DNA from: Escherichia coli
Lineage (GTDB): Bacteria; Pseudomonadota; Gammaproteobacteria; Enterobacterales; Enterobacteriaceae
Direction: 5' to 3' (one strand)
Assembly (NCBI RefSeq): GCF_024298765.1
Contig: NZ_CP101212.1
Length of the DNA: 64,000 nt
Made by a program: the position numbers and the translations under genes. The notes beneath the pieces were generated by a model. That model did not search any database. It was given only the letters and a program-made list of their open reading frames with translations, and was not told the DNA's origin. This document shows positions 15,815-64,000 of the stretch, piece after piece (position 1 is the first letter of the stretch; each line of letters opens with the position of its first letter).

Positions 15815-15817
15815 TAT

Positions 15818-17880: not shown

Positions 17881-17920
17881 AATGTCTAATCACTGGCTCA
17901 TTATAAATGTCCATATATTG

Positions 17921-17956: not shown

Positions 17957-17984
17957 CTTTAGCATAACGTCATTATGCGAACCA

Positions 17985-32091: not shown

Positions 32092-32950
32092 TTGCCCATC
32101 GATATGGGGAGCTCATCTGCACTGTTCATTAATATACTTCTGGGCTCCCTACAGTTGTTTTTGCATAGTGATAAGCCTCTCTCTGAGGGAGGAAATAATC
32201 CTGTTCAGCGATGTCTGCCAGTCGGGGGGGCTGCATTATCCACGCCCGAGGCGGTGGTGGCTTCACGCGGGGATGGGCAGATTGATCTGATATGCAACCG
32301 ACGACGACCAGCGGCAACATCATCACGCAGAGCTTCATTTTCAGATTTGGGCCACCTTTTGATTTCTCGTTTAACTTTTGCAGTCACCAGACTGTGATTT
32401 ATTTTAACAAATCAATAGCTTTCATAAAATTCTCGAAGCTGAAAGCTTAACTGAACCAACCAGCCTGGCTGGTGTTTTCTAAAGACAAAAAGGCCATCAG
32501 CAAAACACTGATAGTCTGAATCACCTTTATCAATCATGTATGAAGAAAATATGCGCAATTAGTTGACAGTGATTATCATTTTCATTAAAAAGAGCGCGTA
32601 GCATTCTTATTTCATGAGGAAATTTACCCGCCAACAACCTGAGTAGCGAAAGCTGTTCATCCCCAATATTTTTGCTGGCGGGTTCTTTTTTCTACTGTCC
32701 TCCTCCCCAGAGGAAGCATTCCCATTAATCATTACTGGCGAGGAGGCAAGAGAAAAAGTCGGTTCTTTGTCCCTAAATAACAGCATCATTTCAGTCCATG
32801 CAAAATCTGATTTACCAGCTCACATAATAACCTGATGATACACAGTGTAAGTTCACAGAGATATTGCAATTGCCTCCGGATAAGTAAGGGGAGATTGCAC
32901 TATGCAAATGCAGCACCTGAGGTTGGCTATCCTAAGCAGCCGATTATGCG

Positions 32951-46715: not shown

Positions 46716-46855
46716 TGTATAATTGGCAATATATGGGGATTCATAGTCATTTCTGAGATAATATACGTTAGGCCTTCTCTCCCGTACGGAAATCACTTGT
46801 TTTCCGTAAATTACCTGAATCTTAATCCCTGAGCTGCGGCGGTAATGACTCCAAC

Positions 46856-47359
46856 TTATTGATAGTGTTTTATGTTCAGATAATGCCCGATGACTTTGTC
46901 ATGCAGCTCCACCGATTTTGAGAACGACAGCGACTTCCGTCCCAGCCGTGCCAGGTGCTGCCTCAGATTCAGGTTATGCCGCTCAATTCGCTGCGTATAT
47001 CGCTTGCTGATTACGTGCAGCTTTCCCTTCAGGCGGGATTCATACAGCGGCCAGCCATCCGTCATCCATATCACCACGTCAAAGGGTGACAGCAGGCTCA
47101 TAAGACGCCCCAGCGTCGCCATAGTGCGTTCACCGAATACGTGCGCAACAACCGTCTTCCGGAGCCTGTCATACGCGTAAAACAGCCAGCGCTGGCGCGA
47201 TTTAGCCCCGACGTATCCCCACTGTTCGTCCATTTCCGCGCAGACGATGACGTCACTGCCCGGCTGTATGCGCGAGGTTACCGACTGCGGCCTGAGTTTT
47301 TTAAATGGCGGAAAATCGTGTTGAGGCCAACGCCCATAATGCGGGCGGTTGCCCGGCAT
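46856..47359 (-). CDS. insB: IS1 InsB
   Basis: 167 aa. Confidence 0.85.
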
Positions 47360-47553
47360 CCAACGCCATTCATGGCCATATCAATGATTTTCTGGTGCGT
47401 ACCGGGTTGAGAAGCGGTGTAAGTGAACTGCAGTTGCCATGTTTTACGGCAGTGAGAGCAGAGATAGCGCTGATGTCCGGCGGTGCTTTTGCCGTTACGC
47501 ACCACCCCGTCAGTAGCTGAACAGGAGGGACAGCTGATAGAAACAGAAGCCAC
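47278..47553 (-). CDS. insA: IS1 InsA
   Basis: 91 aa. Confidence 0.85.
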
Positions 47554-47801
47554 TGGAGCACCTCAAAAACACCATCATACACTAAATCAGTAAGTTGGCA
47601 GCATCACCGGAACTTCAAAACTGCGCAAAACACGCAAATACGCACAAGAAAGTAGGGCTGCGCTTGGAATTCGGAAAATAAACCACATCAAAACTACTTT
47701 TTAGCCAAATAACGTTTGGGAATCACCAGAATGGTGGGACAACAGCGGTTTTAGTGCCCTAAATCGTACGTTTTCATCCAGTTGCCCCTCAAACCCCATG
47801 T

Positions 47802-48134
47802 TCAAGTCAGAATAGTGGACAGGCGGCCAAGAACTTCGTTCATGATAGTCTCCGGAACCCGTTCGAGTCGTTTTCCGCCCCGTGCTTTCATATCAATTGT
47901 CCGGGGTTGATCGCAACGTACAACACCTGTGGTACGTATGCCAACACCATCCAACGACACCGCAAAGCCGGCAGTGCGGGCAAAATTGCCTCCGCTGGTT
48001 ACGGGCACAACAACAGGCAGGCGGGTCACGCGATTAAAGGCCGCCGGTGTGACAATCAGCACCGGCCGCGTTCCCTGCTGCTCATGACCTGCGGTAGGAT
48101 CAAGCGAGACAAGCCAGATTTCCCCTCTTTCCAT
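47802..48134 (-). CDS. pemK: PemK/Kid (MazF-family) toxin
   Basis: 110 aa from MERGEIWLVSLDPTAGHEQQGTRPVLIV...; track ORF is extended upstream. Confidence 0.85.
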   Translation of the reverse strand: MERGEIWLVSLDPTAGHEQQGTRPVLIVTPAAFNRVTRLPVVVPVTSGGNFARTAGFAVSLDGVGIRTTGVVRCDQPRTIDMKARGGKRLERVPETIMNEVLGRLSTILT

Positions 48135-48135
48135 G

Positions 48136-48393
48136 TCAGATTTCCTCCTGACCAGTCGCCGGTGCATCCAGCCATTCTCGTTCTTCAGCTGATATTTCAG
48201 CATTCGGATCACACTGTGCCAGTAGCTCAGCCAGTGAATATTGCGGGCGTCTGTACGGCTCAACAATCAGCCGGCCATTATCAATGACCATGCCAACTTC
48301 ATTATCTGTGCCCAGAGACAGCGCATTCAGCAGTGCCGGTGGGACGGTCAGCATAACTGAGCCGCCAACCCTCTTCAGTCGGGTGGTATGCAT
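48136..48393 (-). CDS. pemI: PemI/Kis antitoxin
   Basis: 85 aa MHTTRLKRVGGSVMLTVPPALLNALSLG...; adjacent to pemK. Confidence 0.85.
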   Translation of the reverse strand: MHTTRLKRVGGSVMLTVPPALLNALSLGTDNEVGMVIDNGRLIVEPYRRPQYSLAELLAQCDPNAEISAEEREWLDAPATGQEEI

Positions 48394-48485
48394 TCTTCAC
48401 CTCCATAAAAGTTATATTTAAATATAACATCCACTAAAAAAACACACCAGGCTTTAACGCACAATGTTTAATAAAAATATAACTT

Positions 48486-49139
48486 TCAACCAAACAGTAA
48501 ACCCAGCGTGGTTGCTTCCATATGCAGCAATACCGGCAGCAGCAGGCCACCACTTCTGATCCTGGCCACTGATGTAATCAACCCCACCAGGAACAGTTCT
48601 GCCAGTGTCAGCAGGTTCTGATACTGGCTGTGCGCGGCGACGAACAACAACGACGTTATCAGCGCCCCCAGCCACATCGTCCAGCAGTACCGTGAACGGA
48701 AGACGTTCAGCATAATCCCCCGGAACAGCGTTTCCTCATTCAACGGGGCAAGGATAAAGATGGTCAGCAACGTCAGGATCACGTCAGGTATGGACTTATC
48801 GGCAAAAAGTTTCGTCATAAATGGCTCAGCAGGCAGAGCCAGCGCCTTACCGAGCAGAAATACACCGACATACACCACGGCCATCGCACCGACCAGCCAC
48901 GGTACGCCAACGTTGCGCAGCTGACCAACGACCGGTAGCGGAGCTATCCAACGGCGGTATACCAGGAAAACACACAGCAGGTACATCAGAACAGTACCAT
49001 GACTGAAGAACAAATAGTTTTTTCCTGATCCATAAAGCAGAACGGCCTGCTCCATGACAAATCTGGCTCCCCAACTAATGCCCCATGCAGCCAGCATAAC
49101 CAGCATAAACTGCAGATATTGATTACGTGTTTGAATCAT
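48486..49139 (-). CDS. CPBP-family (Abi/CAAX-protease-like) membrane protein at the position of R100 tir
   Basis: 217 aa multi-TM protein with EETLFRG and HSQYQ motifs; lies between ori/repA4 region and pemI as tir does in R100. Confidence 0.55.
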   Translation of the reverse strand: MIQTRNQYLQFMLVMLAAWGISWGARFVMEQAVLLYGSGKNYLFFSHGTVLMYLLCVFLVYRRWIAPLPVVGQLRNVGVPWLVGAMAVVYVGVFLLGKALALPAEPFMTKLFADKSIPDVILTLLTIFILAPLNEETLFRGIMLNVFRSRYCWTMWLGALITSLLFVAAHSQYQNLLTLAELFLVGLITSVARIRSGGLLLPVLLHMEATTLGLLFG

Positions 49140-49850
49140 TGCATCGCCTGTAAATTTTTAACTTGTCCTATTTTTGTCATTACCACGTATATACACATGT
49201 ATAACAATTCAGATATCGTTACCAGGATATGCCGCATCAGCGGCATGGAAGGCGGCACTCTGTTGTTTCATATGATACAGGAGTAAAACCGCCGAAGCCC
49301 GGCGTAAGCCGGTACTGATTGATAGATTTCACCTTACCCATCCCCAGCCCTGCCAGACCATACCCGCTTTCAGCCATGAGAGAGCTTCTGTGCGCGGTCG
49401 GAGTGGTCCCGACGAGGGTTTACCCGAAGTCGGGGCGTATCTCCGCGTTAGCGGGCCGTGAGGGCCGCTTACGAGCGTGTACTGAGAACTTCCAGCGAGA
49501 AGACTGACAGCGATGAAGATGTAGTTACAACATTCATAATTAAAAGCGACTCTGTTCCGGCCCGAAGGGCCGGGGCGGGGCCGCTTTTCAGTTATGAGGG
49601 AGGGGCTTTGTGGTTTCAGTTCTGCGCTGGTTCGGGGTTTTTCTGGAGGTTGGTTTTGTGTGTTGTAACTAAAGTGGCTCCGGTTGGGGCCCGCCGTTTA
49701 CGGTGGGAGGTGCATATCTGTCTGTCCACAGGACAGGCAGTGAATAGGTTTTCTTTTTAAATGAATGTAATTAAGTAGTTTAAAGGAGATATAAACAGGT
49801 GTTTAAAAGATACATTGCACCCTGTAAGGGGTCAGTTTGGATATCGAAAA

Positions 49851-52800
49851 TTATTGTACGTTAAGGCTGTTTTTTGACCTTTCGACTTTAGCTGGTCTTA
49901 GCCGACGAAACTTACCAGAAGCCGGTATCCGGTTGCTTTTCCAGATATAATCACCTGTCAGATTGATGTGTTCCCAGCCCAACGGCGACAAATGCGACAG
50001 CAGTTGCTCGTTGATCTTCACCCCTTTACGCTTCAGGGCATCGACCGCTCTTTCCATATAGACGGTATTCCACAGGGATATGGCAGCCGTCAGCAGCGTC
50101 AGTCCACTGGCGCGATAGCTCTGATTTTCCGGTTTTCTGTCCCTGATTTCTCCCAGTCGGTGCATAAATACCGCACGCGCCAGCGCGTTACGGGCTTCGC
50201 CTTTATTCAGCCCCGCCTGTACCCGCCGACGCAGAGCCGGGTCGCGGAACCAGTCGAGCATAAACAGGGTTCGCTCAATGCGGCCAATTTCTCTCAGTGC
50301 TTTGGCAAGTCCGTTTTGCTTGGGATAGCTGGCAAGCTTTTTCAGCATCAGGGATGCCGTCACGGTTCCCTGCTTTATCGAGGTTGCCAGACGCAGCACT
50401 TCACGCCAGTGGATTTCGATCTCTTTCAGATTCAGGCTGGTCGTTGATATCAGTGACTGAAGCGCCGGGTATTTCTCTGCTTTCCCTTTGATAAACAGTT
50501 TTTTGTCGTGGAGATCCCTGATTCGCGGACAGAACGCAAATCCCAACAGATGCATCAGGGCAAAGACATGATCGGTGAAACCAGCGGTATCGGTGTAATG
50601 TTCCCTGATTTCCAGGTCGCTTTCGTGGTACAGCAAGCCATCGAGAACATGGGTTGAATCCCTGACCCGACTGATTATGCAGGTGTAAAACGGGCTGTAT
50701 TGATCCGAAATATGGGTATAAAACTGACGTCCAGGCTCTTGCCCATATTTCGGGTTAACCTGCCCTGCGTAGCGGCCTGAGCTGCCGGTTCTGAAATTTT
50801 GTCCATCTGATGATGACGTTGTTCCGTCTCCCCAAAATGCCGCCAACGGTCTTTTCCCCTGCGCATTTACCAGCTCTGCAAGAGCGGCTGAATAGGTTTC
50901 GTCACGGATGTACCATGCCTGAATATCTTCGAGTGATGATTTGGTGCTCCCGGGGCAGGCTTCTGCCATTTTGGTCAGGCCAAGATTGATGCCATCCGCA
51001 AGAATGGTGGTGAGGAGCAAGCGGGTATCGGGACGGGTAATGTCATTTTTTATATGCGAAAAATGTCGGGTAAACGTCGTCCAGCTGTTTACCTCATCGA
51101 GAATTTCCGTGATTTTAGGTCGCGGTAGCATGCTGTAAACCAGCTCTGCCAGCGGTGAAACCTGCGCCGGAACGCAGTTATCCAGCGGAGAGACTTTTAC
51201 GCCCCTGTCGGATATTTCCACATCGGGCAGTTCACCAAGGGCAGCCATGGCATTGACCTCTTCAAGTCTGGACTGAAGCAGGGTCATACGGCTGGTAATG
51301 TACTCATGATAATCAGCAGATACGGGCAGTGGCAGTGCCGGTGTGAGTTTGTCAAAGTCCTTCTCGGGTATGAGGTAATCATCAAAATTTTTGTAGCGGC
51401 GCGAGCCTTTAACCCAGATATCCCCGGAGCGCAACGCCCCCTTAAGCTCGCTGAGTGCACAAAACTCATAGTACTGCCGGTCAATACCCACAGGTGTAAT
51501 CACCACCTTGCGCCAGCTTTCAGGGACAAACTCAAGCGGCGCTGCCGCCGGAACTTTACGTGACTGCTTCCGGTACATATCCTTGATCACAACCAGTGCA
51601 TCAGCCAGAGGTTGCGCTGCCGGGGTTGCGACTAACTGTAAAGCGGACAACATGCGTGGGGCATATTTCCGTAATGTGCTGTATTTCTCGGTAATAATAT
51701 GCAGCGGGTCAAAATTATTTTTTCTGGCGAGATGGCGTGTTTCATCCAGACTGGCGACAAATTCAGCCCATGGGAGTATGTTTTCTATTGCGAGCCAGGG
51801 ATCGCCACCGGAATCACGGGCATCAGACAGCGCCTGACCGACATCGATGTACTGCCTCAGTTTTGACTGGATCAGCTTTCCGGTCTGCTGAAGGCGCTCA
51901 GCCTGTGTTCGTTTGGCTTTGCTGAAAAGACTATTCAGCATTCGCTCATGCAGCTCAATCACTTCGTCTGTCAGTGTGGCTCTGGCTTCTTCCAGCACGC
52001 ACACCAGGATCGCATGACGCCGGGCAGCTGAAAATCGGGTCAAATCCCGGCTACTCATCTTTCGGCCTTCCCGCGCCAGTTTCAGCAACCGGTTCTGGTG
52101 AATGGTACGATCTATACCTTCAGGTAATGCCAGCGATTCAATGCTGCTGAGCCGATCAAGATGTTGCAGCACGTTCTTACCATTGATTTTACCCGGCGGT
52201 TGCAGAAGCCATGTCAGCCTGGAAGGCTGATTATCTGATGACTCAAGTAAATGATCCAGGGCATCCCTGTGAGCCGGAGTTAACGGGGCATTCAGGGTCT
52301 GAAATACGATTTTATCGCCGCCTGCCATGACTTCAGCACAGGTACGCTCCACGACATCAATCGCGGGGATTATCACGTTGTTCTGCCGGAGATAGACAAG
52401 TAACTCTTCGGCTAGGAGAATGCCTTTATCGGTGCGCGTCGCCATCGATAACAGGTGCGTAATACAGTCCTGCTGTATTTTGCCGGTGAACGCCTTTACG
52501 CCAAGATAGCGGTACAGTTCGGTTAAATGCTCACGCCGGGTCGTATCCCGGCCGGAAAGGTAAGCAGGCCAGAGATCCCCGGTAAGCTTTAGCCTGCTGG
52601 CGATATGCTTCAGCAGCGCATCAGAGGGAGAGATTTTTTTATCCGGGGCAAAGCCGACATTTTTCAGATAGCAAAGAAGGACGGCAAAACCAAAACGGCT
52701 GGCGGGTTTACGGTGAGCACTGATAAGCGCCAGATCATGCTCACTGAAATAGGCCATTCGGGTCAGCGTTAACTCATCGTCCGGTAATGCCAGTAATGAT

Positions 52801-52880
52801 TCTCTTTCCGACAGAGAAAGAATCTGCCTCCTTGCCATATAGTTTTCCTCATAAATTATTCGATGCGTTATTTTTAACAA
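49851..52880 (-). CDS. tnpA: Tn3-family transposase TnpA
   Basis: 1009 aa; C-terminal region with GDGTTSSSDGQ...HYTDTAGFTDHVFAL motifs; 3' end runs into the IR. Confidence 0.85.
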   Translation of the reverse strand: MLKITHRIIYEENYMARRQILSLSERESLLALPDDELTLTRMAYFSEHDLALISAHRKPASRFGFAVLLCYLKNVGFAPDKKISPSDALLKHIASRLKLTGDLWPAYLSGRDTTRREHLTELYRYLGVKAFTGKIQQDCITHLLSMATRTDKGILLAEELLVYLRQNNVIIPAIDVVERTCAEVMAGGDKIVFQTLNAPLTPAHRDALDHLLESSDNQPSRLTWLLQPPGKINGKNVLQHLDRLSSIESLALPEGIDRTIHQNRLLKLAREGRKMSSRDLTRFSAARRHAILVCVLEEARATLTDEVIELHERMLNSLFSKAKRTQAERLQQTGKLIQSKLRQYIDVGQALSDARDSGGDPWLAIENILPWAEFVASLDETRHLARKNNFDPLHIITEKYSTLRKYAPRMLSALQLVATPAAQPLADALVVIKDMYRKQSRKVPAAAPLEFVPESWRKVVITPVGIDRQYYEFCALSELKGALRSGDIWVKGSRRYKNFDDYLIPEKDFDKLTPALPLPVSADYHEYITSRMTLLQSRLEEVNAMAALGELPDVEISDRGVKVSPLDNCVPAQVSPLAELVYSMLPRPKITEILDEVNSWTTFTRHFSHIKNDITRPDTRLLLTTILADGINLGLTKMAEACPGSTKSSLEDIQAWYIRDETYSAALAELVNAQGKRPLAAFWGDGTTSSSDGQNFRTGSSGRYAGQVNPKYGQEPGRQFYTHISDQYSPFYTCIISRVRDSTHVLDGLLYHESDLEIREHYTDTAGFTDHVFALMHLLGFAFCPRIRDLHDKKLFIKGKAEKYPALQSLISTTSLNLKEIEIHWREVLRLATSIKQGTVTASLMLKKLASYPKQNGLAKALREIGRIERTLFMLDWFRDPALRRRVQAGLNKGEARNALARAVFMHRLGEIRDRKPENQSYRASGLTLLTAAISLWNTVYMERAVDALKRKGVKINEQLLSHLSPLGWEHINLTGDYIWKSNRIPASGKFRRLRPAKVERSKNSLNVQ

Positions 52881-53099
52881 AAATGGTTATCGCATAAGGG
52901 TATACCCTGACACCATAATCTAAACGTGACGGCACACAATGAACGACATAGCCTATATGCGATAGATTAAATGCAATAACCTAAATGCGGTAATGCGGTG
53001 AAAAAATGTTCATCAGCACTTATTTAAGGGCATAGACGGAAGATCAGTTCACCGATCGGGCAAAAGAGATGCTGGAGCAGTTTGTTTAGGAGCGGGGGC

Positions 53100-53410
53100 A
53101 TAAAATAGCCAGTTACTACCGGGAGAATATCAGCGGTACAAAACTTGACCGACCGGAACTGGGTCGCTTACTGATGGACAGTCACCGCAATGATATTTTG
53201 CTGGTCGAGCAAATTGACCGCCAGCGCCAAAAGCAGGGAGTTGAACTCGCACATACGCTGGGTAAATATCAGGGAAAACAGGTCGCTCAGGAACGGCATC
53301 AAAAGGTACTTTACTACCGGCAGGTCAAGAAAGAAACGGCAGATGCAACAGGGTACAGCACCTCCCAGATATGCCACATTCAGGCACTGTACCGACAATC
53401 AGAATCATGA
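53100..53410 (+). pseudogene. Serine resolvase (tnpR) remnant
   Basis: Fragmentary translation ...DSHRNDILLVEQIDRQRQ... resembles resolvase core but no intact ORF. Confidence 0.35.
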
Positions 53411-53537
53411 GACTTTGGTTAAGCAGGTATGCAGAGCAGAATTTATAATCTATTTCATTCAGACTGATTAAATGGATTACAGAAGCTAAAGGGTCTTCTT
53501 TGTTCAACATGAAACCAGAAGACCCTTACTATTATTA

Positions 53538-54373
53538 TTAAAAAAGCAATTGGGTCAGATACCCCATAAGTATGGCCATACCCAGGATTACTGTCAGAAA
53601 AGCGACTATCATAGGCATTCTGAACATTGATTTAAGCAGTATTACTTCTGTCAAACTCGCTCCAGCACTACCGATTATCAAGGCCATTAATGCCCCCAGG
53701 CCCATTCCTTTAGTCATCAGCACTGATGCAAGTGGTATCACTGCCTCTGCGCGGATATACAACGGAATACCAACAACTGCACTCAGCGGTATGGCTAAGG
53801 GATTATCTGCTCCGGCATGAGCTGCAATCCACTCTGAAGGGATAAAGCCATAAATAAATGAACCTATTAATACACTTAACAAAAGATAAGGCAGAACATC
53901 CTTAAACTGCTGTAAGGCATCTTTCATAGCTAACTTTATTGGGCCAGAGGTGGTATTCGTTGTGAGATTCACATTGCCCAGATTCTCGCTGCTGCAACAG
54001 CTAACAGCTGGTTGTTCAGATGATATTGATGAACAACACGCTGATACGTTCTGCTCGTTCTTTACCGTCCTTAAGTTAATTATGGGGTTCGCTGATGAAG
54101 TACAGCAACTCGTTTTTAAAGGCAATTGAGTCGAGCTAGTGCTGCAACAACTGGAACCCGCCGACGTTTTTACCGAAGCTTCGGAATCATCGCATTTCGT
54201 GGTGCAACCACTTGATGCTGAGTTTTTGTGATCAACAATATGACGTTCAAATCCTAGTAAATCCAATACGATACTGGCAAGGACTGAGACACCGGCAGCG
54301 ATGATCGCGTACAACAAAGTTACTTTCCAGCCAAAGGTAACCCACATTAACCCCACGATAATGGGATTAAGCG
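53538..54373 (-). pseudogene. ArsP-like permease, C-terminal part (downstream of IS66 insertion)
   Basis: Continues in frame from the N-terminal part across the 8-bp duplication (…SPLLN|PIIVGLMWVTFG…); contains a Cys/Ser-rich loop with repeated vicinal CC. Confidence 0.55.
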
Positions 54374-54402
54374 TAAGCGGCTCGTCAGAACCGTATTGAT
54401 AT

Positions 54403-55974
54403 TTACTGAGAGCTCAGATCAACTTTCCAGGGCAACAGATCGCGTACCCGGTTTGCCGGCCAGTCCTGGATATGTTCAATGACGTAACGCAGCCACTTTT
54501 CTGGCTCCACATTGTTCAGACGGCATGTGCCGATCAGCGAGTACAACACCGCCGCATGTTCACCACCGCTGTCGGAACCCGCGAACATCCAGTTTTTCCG
54601 GCCTACGGCCACTCCCCGTAAGGCGTTCTCTGCGATGTTGTTGTCGATTTCCACCCAGCCATTACTGCAGTACACGTTCAGTGCATCCCACTGTTTCAGC
54701 AGGTATGCGAACGCTTTTGCCGTATCTGAGTGACGCGACAGTGTTTTCATCTGTTGCTGTATCCAGTCATACAGTGACTGCATCAGTGGCGCGGCTCTGG
54801 CTTTTCTTGCCGCCAGACGCTGTTCTGCTGAACAGCCCCGGACCTCTGCCTCGATGGCATACAGTTCACCGATACGCTGCAGGGCTTCCGTGGTGATGTC
54901 GGTGGGCGCTCTTGCATGCACATCGTGGATTTTTCTCCGGGCATGAGCCATACACGCGGCTTCCGTTATTCTGCCGGATTCGTATAACACCCGGTAACCA
55001 CCGTAAGCATCGGCCTGAAGCACACCGCTGTAACCGGCCAGGTGATTTTGTGGATGGATACCTTTCCGGTCCGGACTGTACGCGAACCAGACCGCCGGGG
55101 GCATCTGTGAACCGGCGTTGCGATCATCACGGACGTAGACCCACAGCCGGGCTGTCCGGGTTTTACCGCTGCCCGGCTCCTGGACCGGGACGGGGATATC
55201 ATCGGCATGGACTTTACCGGGCATCAGCACATACTGGCGCAGGACGTCATACAGCGGCTCCAGCAGTTCAGCAACAGCACCTGTCCAGCGCCCCAGTGTG
55301 GCACGGCTCAGCTCCACGCCCTGGCGACGGTATATTTCTGACTGGCGGTATAACGGCAGATGGTCTGCATATTTCCCGGTGACAACATGGGCCAGAAGCC
55401 CCGCTCCGGCATAACTGCGTGCAATGGGTTTTGAAGGCACCGGTGCCTGCACGATATGGTCGCACCGGCAACAGGCCTGTTTCGGACGTTGTGTTTCGAT
55501 AACCTTAAAGGCACTGCTGATAAGCTCCAGTTGCTCTGACACATCACATCCCAGTGGACTGAGTTCACCACCACAGGCCGGACAGCATTCCTCTTCCGGC
55601 CGGATGACCCGGGGTTCACGGGGAAGTGAAGCCGGTAACGGTTTACGGGCTGAAGACTGGCGCAGGGGGGATGGCAGTACCGGGTCATATTGCTCACCCA
55701 GCGTTTCTGCCATTTCTTCCTGAAGTGCGCTGATTCGCTCCTGTGCTTCCTGTATCTGCCGTTCGGTTTTTGCGCGAAGTTTTTCTGAGCTTTTACCGAA
55801 CTGCATACGCTGCAGTTTCGCAACCAGCGCCTTCAGCCGGTTGATTTCGGAAGCATAAGCCGCCACCCGCTGTGAGAGCAGGCGGTTGTATTCGGCCATC
55901 TGGCGGATGGTGTCCTGTTGCGTCTGCAACAGTGCCTGCAGGCGGGCATTCTCATGAGCAAGTGAGGTGTCCAT
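54403..55974 (-). CDS. IS66-family transposase TnpC
   Basis: 523 aa with zinc-finger-like CPACGG...CRCDH and DDE domain. Confidence 0.85.
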
Positions 55975-55993
55975 ATCCTCACTTTACAACGGG

Positions 55994-56341
55994 TTATATA
56001 CGGATTCCAGCGCGTTCCGTTCGTTTCGGGTGCTTCCAGTCGATGCCCTCGAGAAGCATGGATAACTGAGCCGGAGTAAGGTGCACCTTGCCGTCACGGG
56101 TGACTGGCCAGACGAAGCGGCCCCGCTCCAGGCGTTTGGTGAAGAGGCACAGTCCGTCACTGTCAGCCCACAACACTTTTATCTGGTCACCCCGGCGTCC
56201 GCGGAAGATGAACAGGTGTCCGGAGAACGGGTCATCCTTCAGGACGTTCTGAACTTTTGAGGCCAGGCCGTTAAAGCCATTTCGCATATCGGTGATACCT
56301 GCAACCAGCCAGATACGCGAACCTGCAGGGAGAGATATCAT
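55994..56341 (-). CDS. IS66-family TnpB
   Basis: 115 aa. Confidence 0.8.
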   Translation of the reverse strand: MISLPAGSRIWLVAGITDMRNGFNGLASKVQNVLKDDPFSGHLFIFRGRRGDQIKVLWADSDGLCLFTKRLERGRFVWPVTRDGKVHLTPAQLSMLLEGIDWKHPKRTERAGIRI

Positions 56342-57018
56342 CAGTGGCTGCTCCCTTTTATTTCGCGGATAAGTGTCTGTAATAACGCCGGCGTCAGTTT
56401 ACCTTTAAGCCTGAGAGTTCCGGCCGGCAGAACCAGCTCACAACACAGACTGTCGGACGGTGTATTTATCTGCTCTGGTTCCTGTGCGGGGGCCGGGATT
56501 TTATTATCCGGCTCCGGCGTTAACGTCACGGGAAGCAGTGCCGGCATATTTTTTCCGGAAGGCAGCAGGCCACCTTTCCGGTATTGATGGCGCCAGTTGA
56601 AGAGCAGGTTATCGTTGATTCCGTTTTCCCGGGCGATCTGCGCCACACAGGCTCCGGGCTGCAGTGACTGCTCCACTAAGGCGATTTTAAACTCATAAGG
56701 GAAGTTGGGCCGCCGGGGACGTTTTTTTACCACGGGGGCTTCGGATATAACGGTGCTTTCAGGACGTACGACTGGTACCGTGGAAAATTGTCCGTAAAGG
56801 CAGGCATCAAGTTCCTGCTCCGACATGCCTGCGGGCAAAGGCCACGAAAGGCCAGCTCTCCGAAAGCGCACGAACATACTACAAACTGTTGATTTTGATA
56901 CACCCAGGCGACGCCCGGCCACAACCCGGGGTAAATGTTCTTCAAAGTGAAGACGTAAAGCTTCAGTGATCCAGGTCCGGTGTTTCATACGATAGTGTCC
57001 ATTAAAAATGATGGACAT
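56341..57018 (-). CDS. IS66-family accessory protein TnpA (orf1)
   Basis: 225 aa, HTH-containing. Confidence 0.7.
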   Translation of the reverse strand: MSIIFNGHYRMKHRTWITEALRLHFEEHLPRVVAGRRLGVSKSTVCSMFVRFRRAGLSWPLPAGMSEQELDACLYGQFSTVPVVRPESTVISEAPVVKKRPRRPNFPYEFKIALVEQSLQPGACVAQIARENGINDNLLFNWRHQYRKGGLLPSGKNMPALLPVTLTPEPDNKIPAPAQEPEQINTPSDSLCCELVLPAGTLRLKGKLTPALLQTLIREIKGSSH

Positions 57019-57071
57019 TATTTTTGTAGAGCCGGAGGAAACAGACCAGACGGTTTAAATGAGCCGGTTAC

Positions 57072-57396
57072 GATTAAGCAACGGTGAAACAAACAAAAAA
57101 GTGAGTGTCGGACCAAACCCTGCTTTCGCCGACAACAACCCTCGTAGCATTGGAATTGTTGAGCAACTACAGAAAGGGGTAACGGCTCCCAACAACGAGG
57201 CCAGCAGGTAGCCTTTTCCTTTTTTCGCCCCTATCAATTGCTGGATTTTATGGTCCGGGACCTTTTGCCTTATCAGGCTCACACCGGCACTGATGACAAT
57301 AAACAGCAAAGATAGCTCGACGGCCAAAAACAAAAACATCTCTGCGGCATCTTGCAGCATAGAAATCCAACTATTCATACTAAACCCTCTTGACAA
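57072..57396 (-). pseudogene. ArsP-like permease, N-terminal part with TPFCSCSTIP motif
   Basis: 108 codons ending at the IS66 junction. Confidence 0.55.
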
Positions 57397-57483
57397 AATC
57401 TACGTTTCTAGAATAATCGAAATATAATTCTGGTCAAGATATTTCTGGTATTATCGAAATATCATTAGACAGAGGGTTGTCAC

Positions 57484-57807
57484 ATGCAACTGGAAGAAGT
57501 AGCTAAAGCACTAAAAGAGCTGGGTCACCCGACCCGTTTGTTCATATTCAAACATCTTGTAAAAGCTGGAGAACAAGGTTTGCCTGTAGGTGAATTGCAA
57601 AAGCAGCTTGGCATTCCCTCATCAACGTTAAGTCATCATATTTCAGCCCTGGTATCAGTAGGGCTCGTCACACAAAACCGGGAGAGTCGAACGCTCATGT
57701 GTGTCTCTCAATACGAAATACTGGAAGCTATCATCGAATTCTTACGTGAAGAGTGCTGTGTAAACAGTAAAACAGATGTTGCGGAACACGCTGGCAAAAA
57801 TGGATAA
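57484..57807 (+). CDS. ArsR/SmtB-family metalloregulatory repressor
   Basis: 107 aa winged-HTH protein divergent from the permease gene; dyad tcgaaatat...atatttc in the shared intergenic region. Confidence 0.7.
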   Translation: MQLEEVAKALKELGHPTRLFIFKHLVKAGEQGLPVGELQKQLGIPSSTLSHHISALVSVGLVTQNRESRTLMCVSQYEILEAIIEFLREECCVNSKTDVAEHAGKNG

Positions 57808-57908
57808 GTAACCGGAAAACTCATAACTGTCATGATTGACGAAAGCTGCATCGGGTGATGCTGCCAACTTACTGATTTAGTGTATGATGGTGTTTTTGAG
57901 GTGCTCCA

Positions 57909-58184
57909 GTGGCTTCTGTTTCTATCAGCTGTCCCTCCTGTTCAGCTACTGACGGGGTGGTGCGTAACGGCAAAAGCACTGCCGGACACCAGCGCTATCT
58001 CTGCTCTCACTGCCGTAAAACATGGCAACTGCAGTTCACTTACACCGCTTCTCAACCCGGTACGCACCAGAAAATCATTGATATGGCCATGAATGGCGTT
58101 GGATGCCGGGCAACTGCCCGCATTATGGGCGTTGGCCTCAACACGGTTTTACGTCACTTAAAAAACTCAGGCCGCAGTCGGTAA
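57909..58184 (+). CDS. insA: IS1 InsA
   Basis: 91 aa. Confidence 0.85.
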
Positions 58185-58606
58185 CCTCGCGCATACAACC
58201 GGGCAGTGATGTGATTGTCTGCGCTGAAATGGACGAACAGTGGGGCTACGTCGGTGCTAAATCACGTCAGCGCTGGCTGTTTTACGCGTATGACAGGATA
58301 CGGAGGACAGTTGTGGCGCACGTTTTCGGTGAACGCACTCTGGCCACACTGGAGCGTCTTCTGAGCCTGCTGTCACCCTTTGACGTGGTGATATGGATGA
58401 CGGATGGCTGGCCGCTGTATGAATCCCGCCTGAAGGGAAAGCTGCACGTAATCAGCAAGCGATATACGCAGCGAATTGAGCGGCATAACCTGAATCTGAG
58501 GCAGCACCTGGCACGGCTGGGACGGAAGTCGCTGTCGTTCTCAAAATCGGTGGAGCTGCATGACAAAGTCATCGGGCATTATCTGAACATAAAACACTAT
58601 CAATAA
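58103..58606 (+). CDS. insB: IS1 InsB
   Basis: 167 aa. Confidence 0.85.
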
Positions 58607-58999
58607 GTTGGAGTCATTACCCGCATGATTCAGCAGATAAATCCTTGAAAGCAGGTACTCAGCCCTCAGTGAACAGAATAAGTCAGCGTAATGTACTTTA
58701 GTGCTGACCACGTGCTCTGTATGATACAGAATCTATCTACTATAAACGAAAATACAGCACGATCAATGCTCACACTCTATATGGGACGTTCGTACCTGGA
58801 CATGATTATCTGTGTTCAATGTCCCCGCATGACCGTCTTAACATCCAGAATATTACGTTTCCAAAAAAACCAGAAATGATAAAAAATGAGCTTAACGTAC
58901 AATAATTTTCGATATCCAAACTGACCCCTGTAAGGCTGGCGCCTGGCGCTTTATGACATGAACGGTTGTAACCTTATGGGGAAGTCCATTGCAGTTAAA

Positions 59000-59008
59000 T
59001 GTGGATAA
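59000..59008 (-). promoter_or_regulatory. DnaA box (TTATCCACA on minus strand), probable RepFIIA oriR
   Basis: tgtggataa on plus strand, downstream of repA1 in the position expected for oriR. Confidence 0.4.
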
Positions 59009-59111
59009 GCAAAATTCCCCGTCTGTGAGGCGTGTTTTGTATCAAAAACAGGGGGGGCCAGATGCACCAGAAGGGTAAGCGTGCAGCAAGAACCGTATTG
59101 ACGGGGATGTG

Positions 59112-60650
59112 TTATTCAGTCGGCAGTGCTACGCGCCAGGGGAGCAGTTCGCCGACCCGGTTTATCGGCCAGTCGGCTATGACGTCAAGGACATAGCGGA
59201 GGTAGCTTTCTGGCTCCACTCCGTTCAGTTTGCACGTCCCGATCAGGCTGTACAGCAGCGCTCCCCGCTCTCCTCCATGATCCGAACCGAAGAACAGGTA
59301 GTTTTTGCGGCCCAGACTGACCATCCGCAACGCATTTTCAGCGATGTTATTGTCCGCCTCAGCCCAGCCATCATCTGCATAGTACGTCAGCGCCGGCCAC
59401 TGGTTCAGGGCGTATGCGAACGCTTTCGCCAGTTCTGAGTGTCGCGACAGGGTTTTCATCTTTTCACGCAGCCAGCTTTCCAGGGATTTCAGCAGCGGTT
59501 TCGTTTTCAACTGACGTTCGGCAAGGCGCTGCTCCGCCGTCATTCCCCTTATCTCTGCCTCGATGGCGTACAGTTCGCCGATCCGTTTCAGCGCTTCCTC
59601 CGTCAGGGCTGACGGGGTGCGAACGTGCACATCGTGGATTTTACGGCGGGCGTGAGCCCAACAGGCGGCTTCCGTTATCCGGCCATCCCGGTACAGCTCG
59701 TTGAACCCGGCGTATGCATCCGCCTGCAGTACACCACTGAACCCCGCAAGATGGGTCTGCGGATGGATGCCTTTTCTGTCCGGGCTGTAAGCGAACCACA
59801 CCGCCGGCGCCAGCGTTGACCCGGCGTTACGGTCGTCACGAACGTAGGTCCATAACCGCCCGGTCTTCGTTTTCTTATTGCCTGGCAACAGCACCGGGAC
59901 AGGCGTGTCATCAGCATGGAGCTTACCGTCAGTCAGCACATAGTCCTGAAGCGCTTCTTCCAGCGGTGACAGTAGCCGGCAGCATGCATCCACCCAGCCC
60001 GACAGCAGTGAACGACTCAGCTCCACGCCCTGGCGGCCGTACATTTCAGACTGGCGGTACAGCGGGGTGTGCTCTGCATACTTTGAGATCAGCACGCGGG
60101 CCAGCAGCCCCGGTCCTGCGATACCCCGCTCGATGGGCCGTGAAGGCGCGGGGGCCTGCACGATGGCATCGCACTGAGTACAGGCATGCTTTTCACGTAC
60201 AGTCCGGATAACCCGGAAGGCGCTGCGCATCAGCTCCAGCTGTTCGGCGGCATCCTCACCCAGATAGCTCAGCGAGCCTCCACATTCCGGGCAGCATGAC
60301 GCTGCCGGCAGCAGCCGTTTTTCATCGCGGGGGAGTGATTCGGGGAACGGTTTGCGGGTGCGGGTTTGACGCAGCGGGCGCTGCACGGCCGGGTCGTCAA
60401 CCCGACCGGTAAGGGTATCACTTTCTTTCTGAAGTGCCTTCAGGTCAGCTTCCATCTGTGCGATACGACGGGAGACTTTTTCCGAGCGGCTGCCGAAGTT
60501 CATCCGGCGCAGCTTATCCAGCTGTGCCTGCAGATGGTCTATTTCGCGTTCACGCTCGTTCAGCTTTTCCTGCAGGGCACGGTTCAGCGCCTCCTGTTCG
60601 GCAAGGAGACGTTTCAGTGCATTGATATCGTCAGGAAGTGAGCTGCTCAT
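59112..60650 (-). CDS. IS66-family transposase TnpC
   Basis: 512 aa, paralogous to 54403..55974. Confidence 0.85.
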
Positions 60651-60698
60651 ACCGGGTATATTACCAGGCTCATTCAGCGTCGACCAGGATAAAGAGGC

Positions 60699-61046
60699 TT
60701 ACAACATAGTCAGGGACGTAAGCAGTCTTTTAGGCTGCCGCCAGTCGATACCTTCCAGCAGCATCGCCAGCTGTGCCGGTGTGAGGAACACTTTGCCATC
60801 CCGGGCTGACGGCCAGGCGAAGCGGCCGCGCTCCAGCCGTTTGGTCAGCAGACACAGTCCATCGCCGGTAGACCAGAGGAGCTTTACCTGACTGCCATTA
60901 CGCCCACGGAAGATAAAAACGTGACCTGACATCGGATCGTCTTTCAGCGTCGTCTGCACCTTTGCCGCCAGGCCGTTGAAGCCGTTTCTCATATCGGTGA
61001 TGCCAGCGACCAGCCAGATCTTTGTCCCTGATGGTAATGGGATCAA
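60699..61046 (-). CDS. IS66-family TnpB
   Basis: 115 aa. Confidence 0.8.
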   Translation of the reverse strand: MIPLPSGTKIWLVAGITDMRNGFNGLAAKVQTTLKDDPMSGHVFIFRGRNGSQVKLLWSTGDGLCLLTKRLERGRFAWPSARDGKVFLTPAQLAMLLEGIDWRQPKRLLTSLTML

Positions 61047-61447
61047 CGTTTGAGCTCCCGTATCAGCAGGTTCAGGATATTTTCACTGATGGCACCATTC
61101 AGACGGAGTGATCCGTGCCGGAACGTCACTTCACAGCTGATATTGAGTGATTCAGGTGTCGCAGTAGCTACAGGTTGTGACCGGGGGGAGGTTGTAGGGA
61201 CAACATCTTCGGCATCAAGTGTTATCGGGAGCAGCTCAGGCACGTTGTTTTCTGTTGTTGAAGGAGGACGTAGTTTTCCTTCGCGCCAGTACTGGCGCCA
61301 CTTGAACAGCAAATTATCGTTGATCCCATGCTCACGAGCGAGTTGCGCTACGGAGATCTCTGGTCGATGCGAGAGTTCAACCATTTTGATTTTGAACTCA
61401 ACGGGATAATTAGGGCTTTTTTTACGCACTGCGGTTAATGATTTCAT
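61043..61447 (-). CDS. IS66-family accessory protein TnpA (orf1)
   Basis: 134 aa. Confidence 0.7.
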   Translation of the reverse strand: MKSLTAVRKKSPNYPVEFKIKMVELSHRPEISVAQLAREHGINDNLLFKWRQYWREGKLRPPSTTENNVPELLPITLDAEDVVPTTSPRSQPVATATPESLNISCEVTFRHGSLRLNGAISENILNLLIRELKR

Positions 61448-61645
61448 GGATAGCGTCCACCATATTTGGTGTCCACTATTCTCTCAGGAATTTCAGGATC
61501 TGCCAGACGGTGCTGAGACGACGCTTACCCAGAAGGTGGATGATGAGGTTGTTTTTTGTATGAGGTGCTGCTTTTTTGTTCGCTGGCAGGCTTCAGGCGT
61601 GCGAATGCCTCCGGTGCGGGCCGGATTATTCAGAAGAGGTCACTT

Positions 61646-62503
61646 TCAGGGGGAAGCTGTGGCCAGCCGGCTGTAATTACGGTTACGTGACAGAATCATG
61701 CGCTCTTTCACACGACGCTCCACTTCGCGTTTTACCGCCTCACGATTGGCAGTGAAGCGCCCTTCCGAGATTTCACGCGTCAGCTGCCGTTTCACCAGGG
61801 TGACGATATCCTGACGTTCCCTGTTCGCATCACGACGCGCACGGGCACGCTTTATTCCACGGGACTTAAGCTCTGTCTGGTAACTGCGGAAACGCTCACG
61901 CACAAAACGCCAGGCTTTCGCTATCAGTTCATCCATACCCAGGGTATCCAGCCCCTGCTTTTTGCGCTGTCTGTTTTCCCATTCAACACGACTGCGGCGC
62001 GCAGCAACCACTGCATCCTCAGACACATCAAGGGCGGCAAATAACGCCGGTGTGAACGTGATATCGGTCGGAATGTAGCACCCGATAAGCGGATCATATT
62101 CCGTCTGGTAGGTAATCAGTCCCAGCTCTGCAAGGAACGTCAAGGCTCGGGAGGCCCGGGTGATGGAGAGTTTTCCGGCAGCAGACTCCGTCGCCAGTCC
62201 GCACTCAATGGCCAGCGTAGTGATGGAGCACTGGACGCGGTTGGCCAGCGGGTCATAGTGAAAACACAGCCCCTGCAGCAGCGCATCAATAGCCCGGCGA
62301 CGCAGTACCGGTGGCATGCGCCGACGCAGTCCCTTCGAACGGGCATGTGCCACATGAATGGCGAAATCAAAACGGGAGGTGAAGCCCACCGCCTTTTCCA
62401 TCAGTTTTTCGCAGAACTTCAGCGTTCCGGCACCTTCACGGGGTGTGAACACCGGATTCGGATTTTTAACCTGTGAATAGTATTTTTGAAGGAGATCAGC
62501 CAT
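61646..62503 (-). CDS. repA1: RepFIIA replication initiator RepA1
   Basis: 285 aa from [24 protein letters not shown]...; recognised as IncFII RepA1. Confidence 0.85.
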
Positions 62504-62990
62504 GTCCCCCTCCAACACTATTCCCCCTCCTACGGGCGGTAACTAGCTCGTCTGGGCCGACACGTAAAGTTTCGAACATATCTGGTCTGAACCAGATGGT
62601 TCCTCCATCAAAAGCGATGAGATGAAGATCATTATCAAGAGTTTTGAGGGCTCTCCAAACACGAGTGTATGAACCTCCACTACAAACTGAAAGCTCTTTA
62701 ACAGATAAGTTAACTTTGTTCGTATCAGGGATGTAGTGTGCGCACATTACTTGTACGAGGGAAACATAAAAACTAACCATCGACGCGCTGATTTTATTTT
62801 TACGTTTGCCATGCGCTATTGCAAGCAAACCTCTGATGAAGATCAGATGCTTGAAGGAGTCAAAATGAGCCCTTTTCTGGAGAAGGCTGCAAAACGGGTG
62901 AGGATACTTGCTGGAATCAATGTGAAGATCTGATTCAATCCCACCCGCTATTACTGAATGTGTTTCATGATTAGCCACACCATCCTGCAC
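62496..62990 (-). CDS. Leader-position ORF homologous to the N-terminal half of RepA1; stop overlaps repA1 ATG (ATGGCTGA)
   Basis: Hand alignment: FCSLLQKRA vs FCEKLMEKA; [29 protein letters not shown] vs [29 protein letters not shown]; [11 protein letters not shown] vs [11 protein letters not shown]. Confidence 0.4.
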
Positions 62991-63109
62991 TTACAATGCA
63001 CAGAAGGAGTGAGCACAGAAAGAAGTCTTGAACTTTTCCGGGCATATAACTATACTCCCCGCATAGCTGAATTGTTGGCTATGCGGTTTTATGGGGCCCC
63101 GGTAATCTT

Positions 63110-63210
63110 TCTAGTCGCCAAACTTGAAGAAGATTATCGGGGTTTTCGCTTTTCTGGCTCCTGTAAATCCACATCAGAACCAGTTCCCTGCCACCTTACG
63201 GCGTGGCCAG
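63110..63210 (+). ncRNA. copA: CopA-like antisense RNA region of the IncFII copy-control system (approximate)
   Basis: Stem-loop ctgccac-cttacggc-gtggcag between repA2 and the repA1 leader; boundaries not determined. Confidence 0.35.
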
Positions 63211-63276
63211 CCACAAAATTCCTTAAACGATCAGCAATCTACCACTCACTCCTGAGATAAGCAAGAATGTGAATAT

Positions 63277-63534
63277 TTACGAAGTCGCTCTGCGTTTCAG
63301 CTCTGATTCAATCAGTTTTTCAAGCATCTGCGCCTGAGTAATACCTTCCTCATCCGCCAGTTCACTCAGCCTGTCTTTTAACCGGGCCTGAATAACCGCA
63401 TGAAAAGCCTTATGAGTGTTGCTTCTGCGAGCCAGAGAAGCTCTTTGCCTCTCTCTGGCCGGAACAGGGTTACCTTTCCGGTATGTACGCTTGGTGCCTG
63501 ATGAGGAAGTCACTGCATTTTCTGTCTGCGACAT
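63277..63534 (-). CDS. repA2: RepA2/CopB copy-number repressor
   Basis: 85 aa [31 protein letters not shown]... Confidence 0.8.
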
Positions 63535-63817
63535 CTCGCCTCCTCAATTCTCAAACAGGGATCGTTTCGCAGAGAATACTACAGTTTTTTGAAATCAGCG
63601 ACTTGAAAGTTGTGACGATGATCTGTGTTGGCGCACAAATCATGTCTGATTACGACCGTTTAATGTGATTTTGATAATGAAATGACTGAAAAGCTGGAAA
63701 TGCCTTAGCCAGGGTGCCGGCCCCGGGCGGGACCGGCTGTTTCTGGTATATAGGGTGTCTGCCCCTGAAATACCTCACACTTCCGGAAAGCGGGGACTTC
63801 CGTCCCCGCCCGGCAGC

Positions 63818-63967
63818 TTACTTCCGTGCTTCGTAGGCCAGAGTTACCTGCACCACTGTATTTCCTCTGTGAATATTCAGCTCACATAACCGTTCCCTGA
63901 ATATCAGTGAAAAACACAACACCGTGGCGCACACGGCGAGCAACCCGATAAGGGCATATTTCGTCAT
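63818..63967 (-). CDS. srnB: Hok/Gef-family toxin (SrnB-like), 49 aa; below the ORF-track size cut-off
   Basis: Minus-strand translation MTKYALIGLLAVCATVLCFSLIFRERLCELNIHRGNTVVQVTLAYEARK; hairpin cggggacttccgtccccg just downstream. Confidence 0.7.
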   Translation of the reverse strand: MTKYALIGLLAVCATVLCFSLIFRERLCELNIHRGNTVVQVTLAYEARK

Positions 63968-64000
63968 AAACTTTGACCTCTCAGCAAAGAAGAGGCTACA

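Follow-up and report, generated by a model that had tools for sequence, protein, structure and literature searches.

Two addiction modules, pemIK and srnB/srnC, flank an IncFIC-type replicon interrupted by two transpositions in an Escherichia coli plasmid

In the 64-kb stretch of E. coli plasmid DNA analyzed here (the window; Table 1), pemIK and srnB/srnC are, very probably, two known addiction modules on an inherited IncF backbone that flank a replicon broken by two transpositions and that are still working. The backbone would have been inherited in the order srnB/srnC–copB–CopA–tap–ORF160–repA–oriR–repA4–tir–pemI–pemK, and the flanking layout would then reflect descent, i.e., IncF synteny (srnB–copB as in F and oriR–tir–pemIK as in R100), with no functional design behind it. 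The first-pass annotation of this DNA had placed pemIK on one side and a Hok/SrnB-type toxin gene on the other side of a disrupted RepFIIA replicon. Both positions are borne out by Pfam matches and by identities to R100 and F, and the disruption proved to be the work of two genuine transposition events, each marked by a duplicated target site. The RepFIIA label held only in part: the replicon is indeed antisense-controlled, but it is not a classical RepFIIA, since MOB-suite assigns its counterpart in identical plasmids to IncFIC, a hybrid of RepFIIA and RepFIC.

Both modules would plausibly still enforce maintenance of the plasmid, an activity that we predict because post-segregational killing is independent of the replicon used and because a RepFIB repA is present. 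The finding is real but ordinary and carries little weight as a discovery: pemIK, srnB and their flanking positions have already been described, and R100, F, pEC958 and pAPEC-1 offer documented cases of such positions beside IncFII/FIC replicons. Its value lies in annotation: two killer modules, in all likelihood intact, remain on a ColV-type virulence/resistance plasmid beside a replicon that is probably unable to fire. Replicon typing would still say “IncFIC” though RepFIB probably does the replicating, and plasmid-curing strategies must neutralize both toxins.

Table 1. Coordinates of the features discussed, in window numbering
Feature	Position	Strand	Remarks
RepFIB repA, Rep_3-type initiator, 325 aa, intact	1..978	+	open frame
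pemK (= kid), MazF-fold endoribonuclease toxin, 110 aa, intact	47802..48134	-	Pfam PF02452 PemK_toxin, 102.6 bits
pemI (= kis), MazE/AbrB-type antitoxin, 85 aa, intact	48136..48393	-	Pfam PF04014 MazE_antitoxin, 30.2 bits
tir, CPBP (Rce1-like) membrane protease gene	48486..49139	-	Pfam PF02517, 63 bits
Distal origin half	49229..49827	-	AT-rich oriR part at ~49731..49827 (69% A+T), then repA4 region
Tn3-family transposon, 9.1 kb, in oriR	49828..58928		44/48-bp terminal inverted repeats starting GGGGTC
Transposon cargo: tnpA	49851..52880
Transposon cargo: IS66-family element splitting a permease gene	54373..57071		target-site duplication GATTAAGC
Transposon cargo: arsR-like gene	57484..57807
Transposon cargo: IS1	57854..58621
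Proximal oriR fragment	58929..59074	-	95% identical to R100; DnaA box TTATCCACA at 59000..59008
ISEc22 (IS66 family), in repA-oriR spacer	59075..61528	-	ends GTAAGCG...CGCTTAC
repA, RepA1-type initiator, 285 aa, intact	61646..62503	-	Pfam PF02387, 94.3 bits
ORF160/164, RepA-like ORF	62496..62990	-	likely start GTG at 62978
tap, RepA leader peptide, 24 aa	62971..63045	-	annotated tap in pAPEC-1; aligned to R100 tap
CopA antisense RNA gene	63063..63151	+	Rfam RF00042, 93.6 bits (gathering score 60)
copB / repA2 transcriptional repressor	63277..63534	-	Pfam PF10723, 107.6 bits
fbi-like 3′ element of srnB mRNA	63753..63761	-	CAGACACCC; partner is the mRNA 5′ end GGGUGUUUG, beyond the window
srnB toxin ORF, Hok/Gef family, 49 aa	63818..63967	-	Pfam PF01848, 37.3 bits (cut-off 22)
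Last 33 nt of srnB leader	63968..64000	-	11 open in-frame codons of the srnB′ (mok-like) frame
srnC promoter, window portion	63973..63978	+	-35 box TTGACC (position given), plus first 4 nt of the -10 box

The pemIK Module

PemI, PemK and Tir are each 100% identical to the corresponding R100 protein, and PemK is also identical at 110 of 110 residues to the Kid toxin (PDB 1M1F). The two genes form one operon with pemI upstream, only 1 nt separating the pemI stop from the pemK start, and the order oriR-repA4-tir-pemI-pemK is that of R100 pem and R1 parD, tir being the native neighbor of pemIK in R100. Not one nucleotide differs from R100 in 47609..49459, a stretch that begins 193 bp past the end of pemK, extends past tir and includes the pem promoter region. 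A sigma-70 consensus promoter scan upstream of pemI gave no match, and the pem promoter was therefore taken from the R100 identity: judged by its bases, the promoter/operator is presumably unchanged, so that the characterized R100 promoter would be present here. Outside this identical stretch the two plasmids differ. A DUF262 gene follows pemK in R100, whereas IS1 stands there in our sequence, and the distance from pemIK to repA is 13.2 kb as compared with 1.7 kb in R100, because 11.6 kb of mobile DNA has been inserted.

As a type II toxin-antitoxin pair, PemK would act as a stable, sequence-specific endoribonuclease and PemI as its protease-labile antitoxin; upon plasmid loss PemI would be gone first, and plasmid-free cells would be inhibited. 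In R1, kis-kid is an auxiliary, weak stabilizer coupled to replication (PMC4344636) and, given this, the contribution of pemIK beside a dead replicon may be small.

One could also suppose that the modules are kept mainly for roles other than killing, such as copy-number rescue and cell-division coupling by Kid, exclusion of competing IncF plasmids or phage defense. Kid of R1 does cleave the copB-repA mRNA, which leads to more RepA and rescues copy number (PMC4344636), and type I and type II toxin-antitoxin systems are often discussed in defense contexts (bioRxiv 10.1101/2025.08.07.668861). With oriR split, however, replication rescue has no target in this plasmid; moreover, the Kid site UUACU that R100 has between copB and repA reads UUGCU in the FIC-type control region found here, and the single UUACU left is inside copB. 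Stabilization phenotypes, on the other hand, are known for both R100 pem and F srnB (PMC4147584; references in PMC4398462), and we consider it unlikely that non-killing roles are the main reason for retention.

The srnB/srnC Module

The second of the two addiction modules is represented in the window by its toxin ORF, its 3′ UTR and 33 nt of leader only. The product of the 49-aa ORF is identical at 49 of 49 residues to SrnB of the F plasmid (WP_001312851.1), which, together with the Pfam match, rules out a chance ORF; no second Hok-like gene was found in the 64-kb window by tblastn. F srnB is known to kill plasmid-free segregants (PMC4147584; PMC2626276), and in experiments SrnB was toxic and SrnC protective (PMC12390103). 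The first-pass annotation had stated that so short a gene would be missed, which is true of a length-filtered ORF track but not of RefSeq, where the gene is called in every related record. No frameshift, which it had raised as a concern, was detected in pemI, pemK or srnB, and the Sok-like antisense and mok-like frame that it proposed to look for occur in the related plasmid pG12a, together with a hok-type leader and an antisense promoter, the RNA itself being predicted; in the present DNA their place is mostly beyond the window.

As a type I locus of the hok/sok family, srnB/srnC would produce a stable srnB mRNA that is held inert by pairing of its 5′ and 3′ ends. Processing at the 3′ end would make this mRNA translatable through the upstream srnB′ frame, and the short-lived antisense SrnC RNA would keep that frame blocked until the plasmid is lost.

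The srnB promoter, most of the leader, the srnB′ start and srnC fall beyond the window, in the equivalent of 64001..64147. An Rfam search of 63400..64000 at a permissive threshold returned no sok/hok-leader match, because the window end cuts the element, leaving only 46 of its 159 nt there. The control elements were read from pG12a, since it and the window are 100% identical over 5,075 bp (58926..64000), to the last base (window coordinate = L001 coordinate + 47419, L001 being the pG12a sequence). In pG12a, the Rfam sok/hok-leader model (RF01794) matches at L001 16536..16694 with 90.2 bits (gathering score 59), and an srnB promoter (TAGTCA-16-TATTAT) was found as well as the antisense (srnC) promoter (TTGACC-18-TACAAT, 10/12). 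The srnB′ ATG, at the equivalent of window position 64024, has a GAGG Shine-Dalgarno sequence ahead of it and is in frame with srnB. The predicted SrnC-like RNA consists of a 5′ tail and a hairpin (-30.7 kcal/mol, z -6.0). Folding of the full 370-nt srnB mRNA gave an MFE of -153.4 kcal/mol (z = -6.6), with nt 1-9 paired to nt 353-361 in both the MFE and the centroid folds; the 3′ partner of this fold-back (fbi/tac) pairing is in the window, and the 5′ partner was taken from pG12a.

Taken from promoter to fbi, the locus is 98% identical to srnB/srnC of F (395/404 nt) and, as in F, stands 283 bp upstream of the copB of a FIC-type control region. Nine substitutions separate the present locus (via pG12a) from that of F: one replaces Leu by Phe in the extension encoded by srnB′, and another puts one G-U wobble into the 5′-3′ pairing, which is perfect in F (GGGUGUCUG/CAGACACCC).

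An srnB module that is incomplete or deregulated beyond the window end in this particular plasmid, with srnB reduced to a silent remnant, would agree with the short piece of leader and the missing sok/hok-leader match in the window. It would also agree with the ~9% of locus-matching plasmid records that are without a contiguous locus, and with pVM01, where a 100% identical copy of the Tn3-family transposon is found at a different site, ~325 bp upstream of srnB, so that the srnB neighborhood is a known insertion target. Against this, pG12a continues from the window end into a complete locus, the whole 406-bp locus is in one piece in 2,649 of the 2,909 plasmid records carrying it, and a promoter kept without srnC should be lethal, which makes persistence with an intact toxin ORF unlikely. 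A broken srnB module thus appears highly improbable; extrapolating from the relatives, we infer instead that the control region continues past base 64000 in this plasmid.

A Replicon Broken in Cis

All coding and RNA parts of IncFII-type control are present, in the order copB, CopA, tap, ORF160 and repA. The repA product is WP_000774297.1 in identical plasmids, and the gene shares 92% nucleotide identity with R100 repA. In the published layout, ori sits between repA1 and repA4, and tir and pemIK follow it (PMC4398462). What has not been kept here is the contiguous cis arrangement of repA, spacer and oriR, which is interrupted by two insertions, both with target duplications. ISEc22 begins 109 bp after the repA stop and is bordered by an 8-bp duplication, CCAGAAGG, at 59067..59074 and 61529..61536; it is also annotated in pG12a and is absent from pAPEC-1, pVM01 and R100. 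The Tn3-family transposon is bordered by the 5-bp duplication TGTAA (49823..49827 and 58929..58933); the BLAST alignments overlapped by 8-10 bp at the junctions, and these overlaps were resolved by eye into the 5-bp and 8-bp duplications.

The DnaA box stands in a context, GGGGAATTTTGCTTATCCACATTTAAC, that is DnaA-box1 of R1 oriR (PMC5883639). The transposon is located 67-71 bp past this box and thus splits oriR between the DnaA box and the AT-rich part. Downstream of the DnaA box, the distal half is collinear with both R100 (99.2%) and pAPEC-1 (96%).

It might be argued that the FII/FIC replicon still functions, with RepA acting on a reconstituted or alternative origin, since repA, tap, CopA and copB are all intact and pG12a, with the ISEc22 insertion alone, is still typed IncFIC; yet the side with the DnaA box and the neighboring RepA-binding region (58929..59074) is now 2.45 kb from repA and 9.1 kb away from the AT-rich side (49731..49827), and according to Masai and Arai, R1 RepA reportedly acts preferentially in cis and oriR is a contiguous unit of ~190 bp. 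RepA binding has, furthermore, been placed directly beside the DnaA box (PMC5883639), and a working FII/FIC replicon is in our estimation a very slim prospect.

Broken in cis by the two transpositions, the FII/FIC replicon would thus have lost its function. Since ISEc22 parts repA from oriR and the transposon splits oriR itself, the plasmid most likely replicates from RepFIB. The RepFIB repA matches a “RepB family plasmid replication initiator” at 1..978 of related plasmids; the origin iterons upstream of it are outside the window.

ORF160

Between tap and repA lies ORF160 (62496..62978, ~160 codons), which has no counterpart in R100. It is conserved and has the same 8-nt start/stop overlap at both ends. 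ORF160 matches RepA by hhalign, a result to which a Foldseek comparison of the ORF160 model with the PDB adds little (weak, generic winged-helix matches only, with E values of at least 8e-3). We would suggest, tentatively and with some doubt, that ORF160 is a functional part of FIC-type replication control rather than a defunct scar of recombination. On one reading, it would be a required link in a three-step translational coupling: CopA blocks tap, translation of tap opens ORF160 and termination of ORF160 gives access to repA. On the other, it would be a shortened RepA paralogue with a winged-helix fold that adjusts initiation or incompatibility.

Relation to Known Plasmids

The hybrid repFIIA-repFIC replicon is that of the ColV-type plasmids pAPEC-1, pVM01 and pAPEC-O1-ColBM. 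pAPEC-1 matches window positions 61529..64000 at 100% identity, a stretch that takes in srnB, copB, CopA, tap, the extra RepFIC-type “repA” ORF and repA; the pAPEC-1 paper (2009) had already described srnB as a post-segregational system and noted the extra RepFIC repA component (PMC2626276). While pAPEC-1 has an uninterrupted repA-oriR and is without pemIK, the present plasmid has two interruptions of oriR, followed by the R100-like tir-pemIK segment. No record in PLSDB or among the complete E. coli genomes contained the exact 17-kb arrangement at ≥80% coverage; the present mosaic is absent from these collections, though every piece of it is present there.

A parallel in layout and fate is the RepFIC remnant of F, in which srnB likewise stands upstream of a FIC-type control region, a Tn3-family element caused the inactivation, and other replicons replicate the plasmid. 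The point of attack differs. In F, Tn1000 lies inside ORF160, where homology stops at window position 62705, and the 12 kb of F that we inspected contained no repA and no oriR. In the present plasmid, the coding genes have survived intact, and it is the cis-acting origin that has been struck.

Post-segregational killing modules flanking the RepFIIA region

The first-pass annotation had placed pemIK at one side of the RepFIIA region and a 49-aa Hok/SrnB-type gene at the other, and both positions are borne out, with matching Pfam families and both pem genes intact (see the table). Between them lie copB/repA2, CopA, tap and repA, all parts of an IncFII-type replicon. Since neither killing mechanism is tied to the replicon in use, it is reasonable to expect that both modules still act next to the disrupted replicon.

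PemI, PemK and the adjoining CPBP/Tir protein all show 100% identity to their R100 counterparts, and PemK shares 110 of 110 residues with the Kid toxin of R1 (PDB 1M1F). The DNA from 47609 to 49459, which spans pemK, pemI, the pem promoter region and tir, has no differences from R100; all 17 differences in the compared stretch fall within 49460..49700. The endoribonuclease PemK/Kid is stable and its antitoxin PemI/Kis labile (PMC4398462). An IS1 copy (46838..47608) adjoins sequence 193 bp downstream of pemK, and the window lacks the DUF262 gene found in R100 (7139..8515) between pemK and IS1, an arrangement consistent with an IS1-mediated adjacent deletion.

On the model of hok/sok, of which srnB is a homologue (PMC4147584), the stable srnB mRNA would become active by 3' processing and be translated via srnB', the mok-like upstream frame, unless blocked by the unstable Sok-like antisense RNA SrnC; the resulting duplex would then be cut by RNase III. 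In experiments, SrnB was toxic and SrnC protective (PMC12390103). The modules might serve mainly roles other than post-segregational killing, a view that is compatible with killing as well.

Features of the 64-kb window
Feature	Position	Strand	Remarks
RepFIB initiator gene	1..978		intact
ALIL pseudoknot	8048..8164	+	Rfam; IS3-type frameshift element
Group II intron catalytic domain	9448..9534	-	Rfam; beside ltrA-type gene
Class 1 integron attI/aminoglycoside leader	25376..25457	-	Rfam
pemK	47802..48134	-	intact; Pfam PemK_toxin, 102.6 bits
pemI	48136..48393	-	intact; Pfam MazE_antitoxin, 30.2 bits
Tn3-family transposon	49828..58928		9,101 bp; 5-bp duplication TGTAA
Second IS66-family element	54373..57071		duplication GATTAAGC; inside the transposon's permease gene
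ISEc22	59075..61528		flanking 8-bp duplication CCAGAAGG
repA	61646..62503		PF02387
ORF160/164	62496..62990	-	RepA-like ORF inserted between tap and repA
tap	62971..63045		
CopA antisense RNA	63063..63151		Rfam, 93.6 bits
copB/repA2	63277..63534		
srnB (Hok-like 49-aa ORF)	63818..63967	-	Pfam HOK_GEF, 37.3 bits (cut-off 22)

The srnB/srnC control region

The srnB product is identical to WP_001312851.1, the protein annotated beside the RepFIC remnant of F, and from promoter to 3' end the F locus matches this one at 395 of 404 positions (98%). No second Hok gene turned up in the 64-kb window when SrnB and R1 Hok were used as tblastn queries.

Of this locus the window takes in no more than the toxin ORF, the 3' UTR and 33 nt of the leader, and Rfam gave no match on the window tail alone. 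The Sok-like RNA and mok-like frame that the first-pass annotation proposed to look for are predicted in plasmid pG12a (NZ_CP129273.1), which is 100% identical over 58926..64000 (window coordinate = pG12a coordinate + 47419) and in which the srnB/srnC locus is complete. The Rfam sok model, which in fact describes the hok-mRNA leader, scores 90.2 bits (gathering score 59) at pG12a 16536..16694, on the same strand as srnB. A promoter-like TAGTCA-16-TATTAT lies upstream of the predicted mRNA start, and a predicted antisense promoter, TTGACC-18-TACAAT (10/12), occupies window-equivalent 63973..64002 on the opposite strand, so that the window end cuts its -10 box. In pG12a srnB', the mok analogue, begins with an ATG behind GAGG at window-equivalent 64024 and extends srnB in frame by 19 codons. 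The fold computed for the predicted 370-nt mRNA (-153.4 kcal/mol, z = -6.6) pairs bases 1-9 with CAGACACCC at window 63753..63761, which is the fold-back (fbi/tac) pairing characteristic of hok mRNAs. For the antisense RNA, a strong hairpin (-30.7 kcal/mol, z = -6.0) is predicted together with an unpaired 5' tail that complements the start of srnB'.

Among PLSDB plasmids, 2,909 carry the 406-bp srnB locus, 2,649 of these as one contiguous stretch. This, with the pG12a identity, makes it very probable, by extrapolation from sequence, that the control half is present in the source plasmid; that it is damaged past the window end is unlikely given the same identity and the 91% contiguity. A further Rfam match past the window end, to AS-pc02 ("antisense to pHK01_099", 176 bits), is at 17147..17332 (+) of pG12a, about 450 bp upstream of the srnB promoter, and overlaps a small ANR-family gene adjoining finO.

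Disruption of the replicon

Comparison of the window with pAPEC-1, pVM01, R100 and pG12a, together with a reading of the junctions, upholds the annotated disruption of the replicon, which is in cis and results from two clean transposition events. ISEc22 begins 109 bp past the repA stop codon, in the repA-oriR spacer. The Tn3-family transposon, with 44/48-bp inverted repeats starting GGGGTC and an IS1 of its own, inserted 67-71 bp past the DnaA box TTATCCACA (59000..59008), whose context matches that of DnaA-box1 in R1 oriR; RepA is reported to bind directly downstream of that box (PMC5883639). With both insertions in place, 2.45 kb separate repA from the DnaA box, and a further 9.1 kb lie between the box and the AT-rich side of the origin (49731..49827, 69% A+T). 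R1 RepA reportedly shows cis-preference (Masai and Arai), from which, and from the need for an uninterrupted oriR, we infer that the FII-type replicon is non-functional. A contiguous oriR between repA1 and repA4 is a requirement (PMC4398462), and with oriR split it is unlikely that the replicon between the modules still functions. RepFIB, with its initiator gene intact and related plasmids typed IncFIB+IncFIC, is likely the working replicon, its upstream iterons falling outside the window.

A 100% identical copy of the transposon (tnpA, permease, arsR-like gene, IS1) lies in pVM01 (13855..20250), about 325 bp upstream of srnB rather than in oriR and with no IS66-family insertion in its permease gene. 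This indicates an active or recently active element moving within ColV-type plasmids.

In R1, Kid also cuts the copB-repA mRNA at intergenic UUACU sites, which rescues copy number (PMC4344636); in this plasmid there is nothing left for that circuit to rescue. The R100 intergenic site GAUUACUGAUCG (3552) corresponds to GAUUGCUGAUCG in the window's FIC-type control region (63230..63250, minus strand), with UUGCU in place of the UUACU motif, and the single UUACU on the repA-sense strand of 61600..63700 lies inside copB (63337..63341). R1-type rescue may be wired differently here.

Origin of the arrangement

That both modules flank the replicon is a matter of inherited backbone synteny. F and the window share exactly the same spacing, with srnB 283 bp upstream of copB, and in R100 the order is repA - oriR - repA4 - tir - pemI - pemK, with pemI and repA 1.7 kb apart; the present 13.2 kb is due to the two insertions only. 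According to the pEC958 paper, pemIK is encoded inside RepFII (PMC4398462), while that on pAPEC-1, which is 100% identical to window 61529..64000, reports the same srnB and "repFIIA-repFIC" replicon and lists srnB as a post-segregational system (PMC2626276). Nothing in the finding is new, since identical sequences had been described by 2009. As an exact mosaic, the 17-kb arrangement is absent from PLSDB and from complete E. coli genomes (best single-place coverage 60% and 51%, respectively) and reflects ordinary IS-driven reshuffling.

A RepA-like reading frame between tap and repA

Window 62503..62968, which encodes ORF160/164, has no counterpart in R100. ORF160 probably starts at a GTG (62978) 5 nt ahead of the tap stop (GTGGCTAA), and its TGA stop comes 5 nt past the repA ATG (ATGGCTGA); the R100 tap/repA junction (GTGACTGA) has the same 8-nt start/stop geometry as both ends. 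By sequence profile ORF160 is clearly related to RepA, residues 26-153 aligning with RepA 27-172 (34% identity, hhalign probability 95.8%). The AlphaFold model (pLDDT 75-90 over residues 41-130) has a winged helix-turn-helix, with weak matches only to PDB folds. In PLSDB, 516 plasmids carry ORF160; most of its homologues, at 65-99% identity, are about 159 aa long, and the order copB - (tap) - ORF159 - repA285 with the same overlaps recurs in all three diverged contigs examined. This conservation suggests that ORF160 is maintained, with dN/dS of 0.25-0.42 against 0.10-0.23 for repA; in F it is interrupted by Tn1000. It could act as a relay in translational coupling or as a regulator derived from a truncated RepA, and we found no discussion of its conservation and coupling geometry in the literature.

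Other RNA features

In the virulence region, Rfam places two oppositely oriented copies of the STnc490 Hfq-binding sRNA family (17529..17652, +, 135 bits; 32356..32477, -, 90.8 bits), about 15 kb from each other. The ALIL pseudoknot, group II intron and attI leader are ordinary mobile-element RNA features of a ColV-type plasmid.
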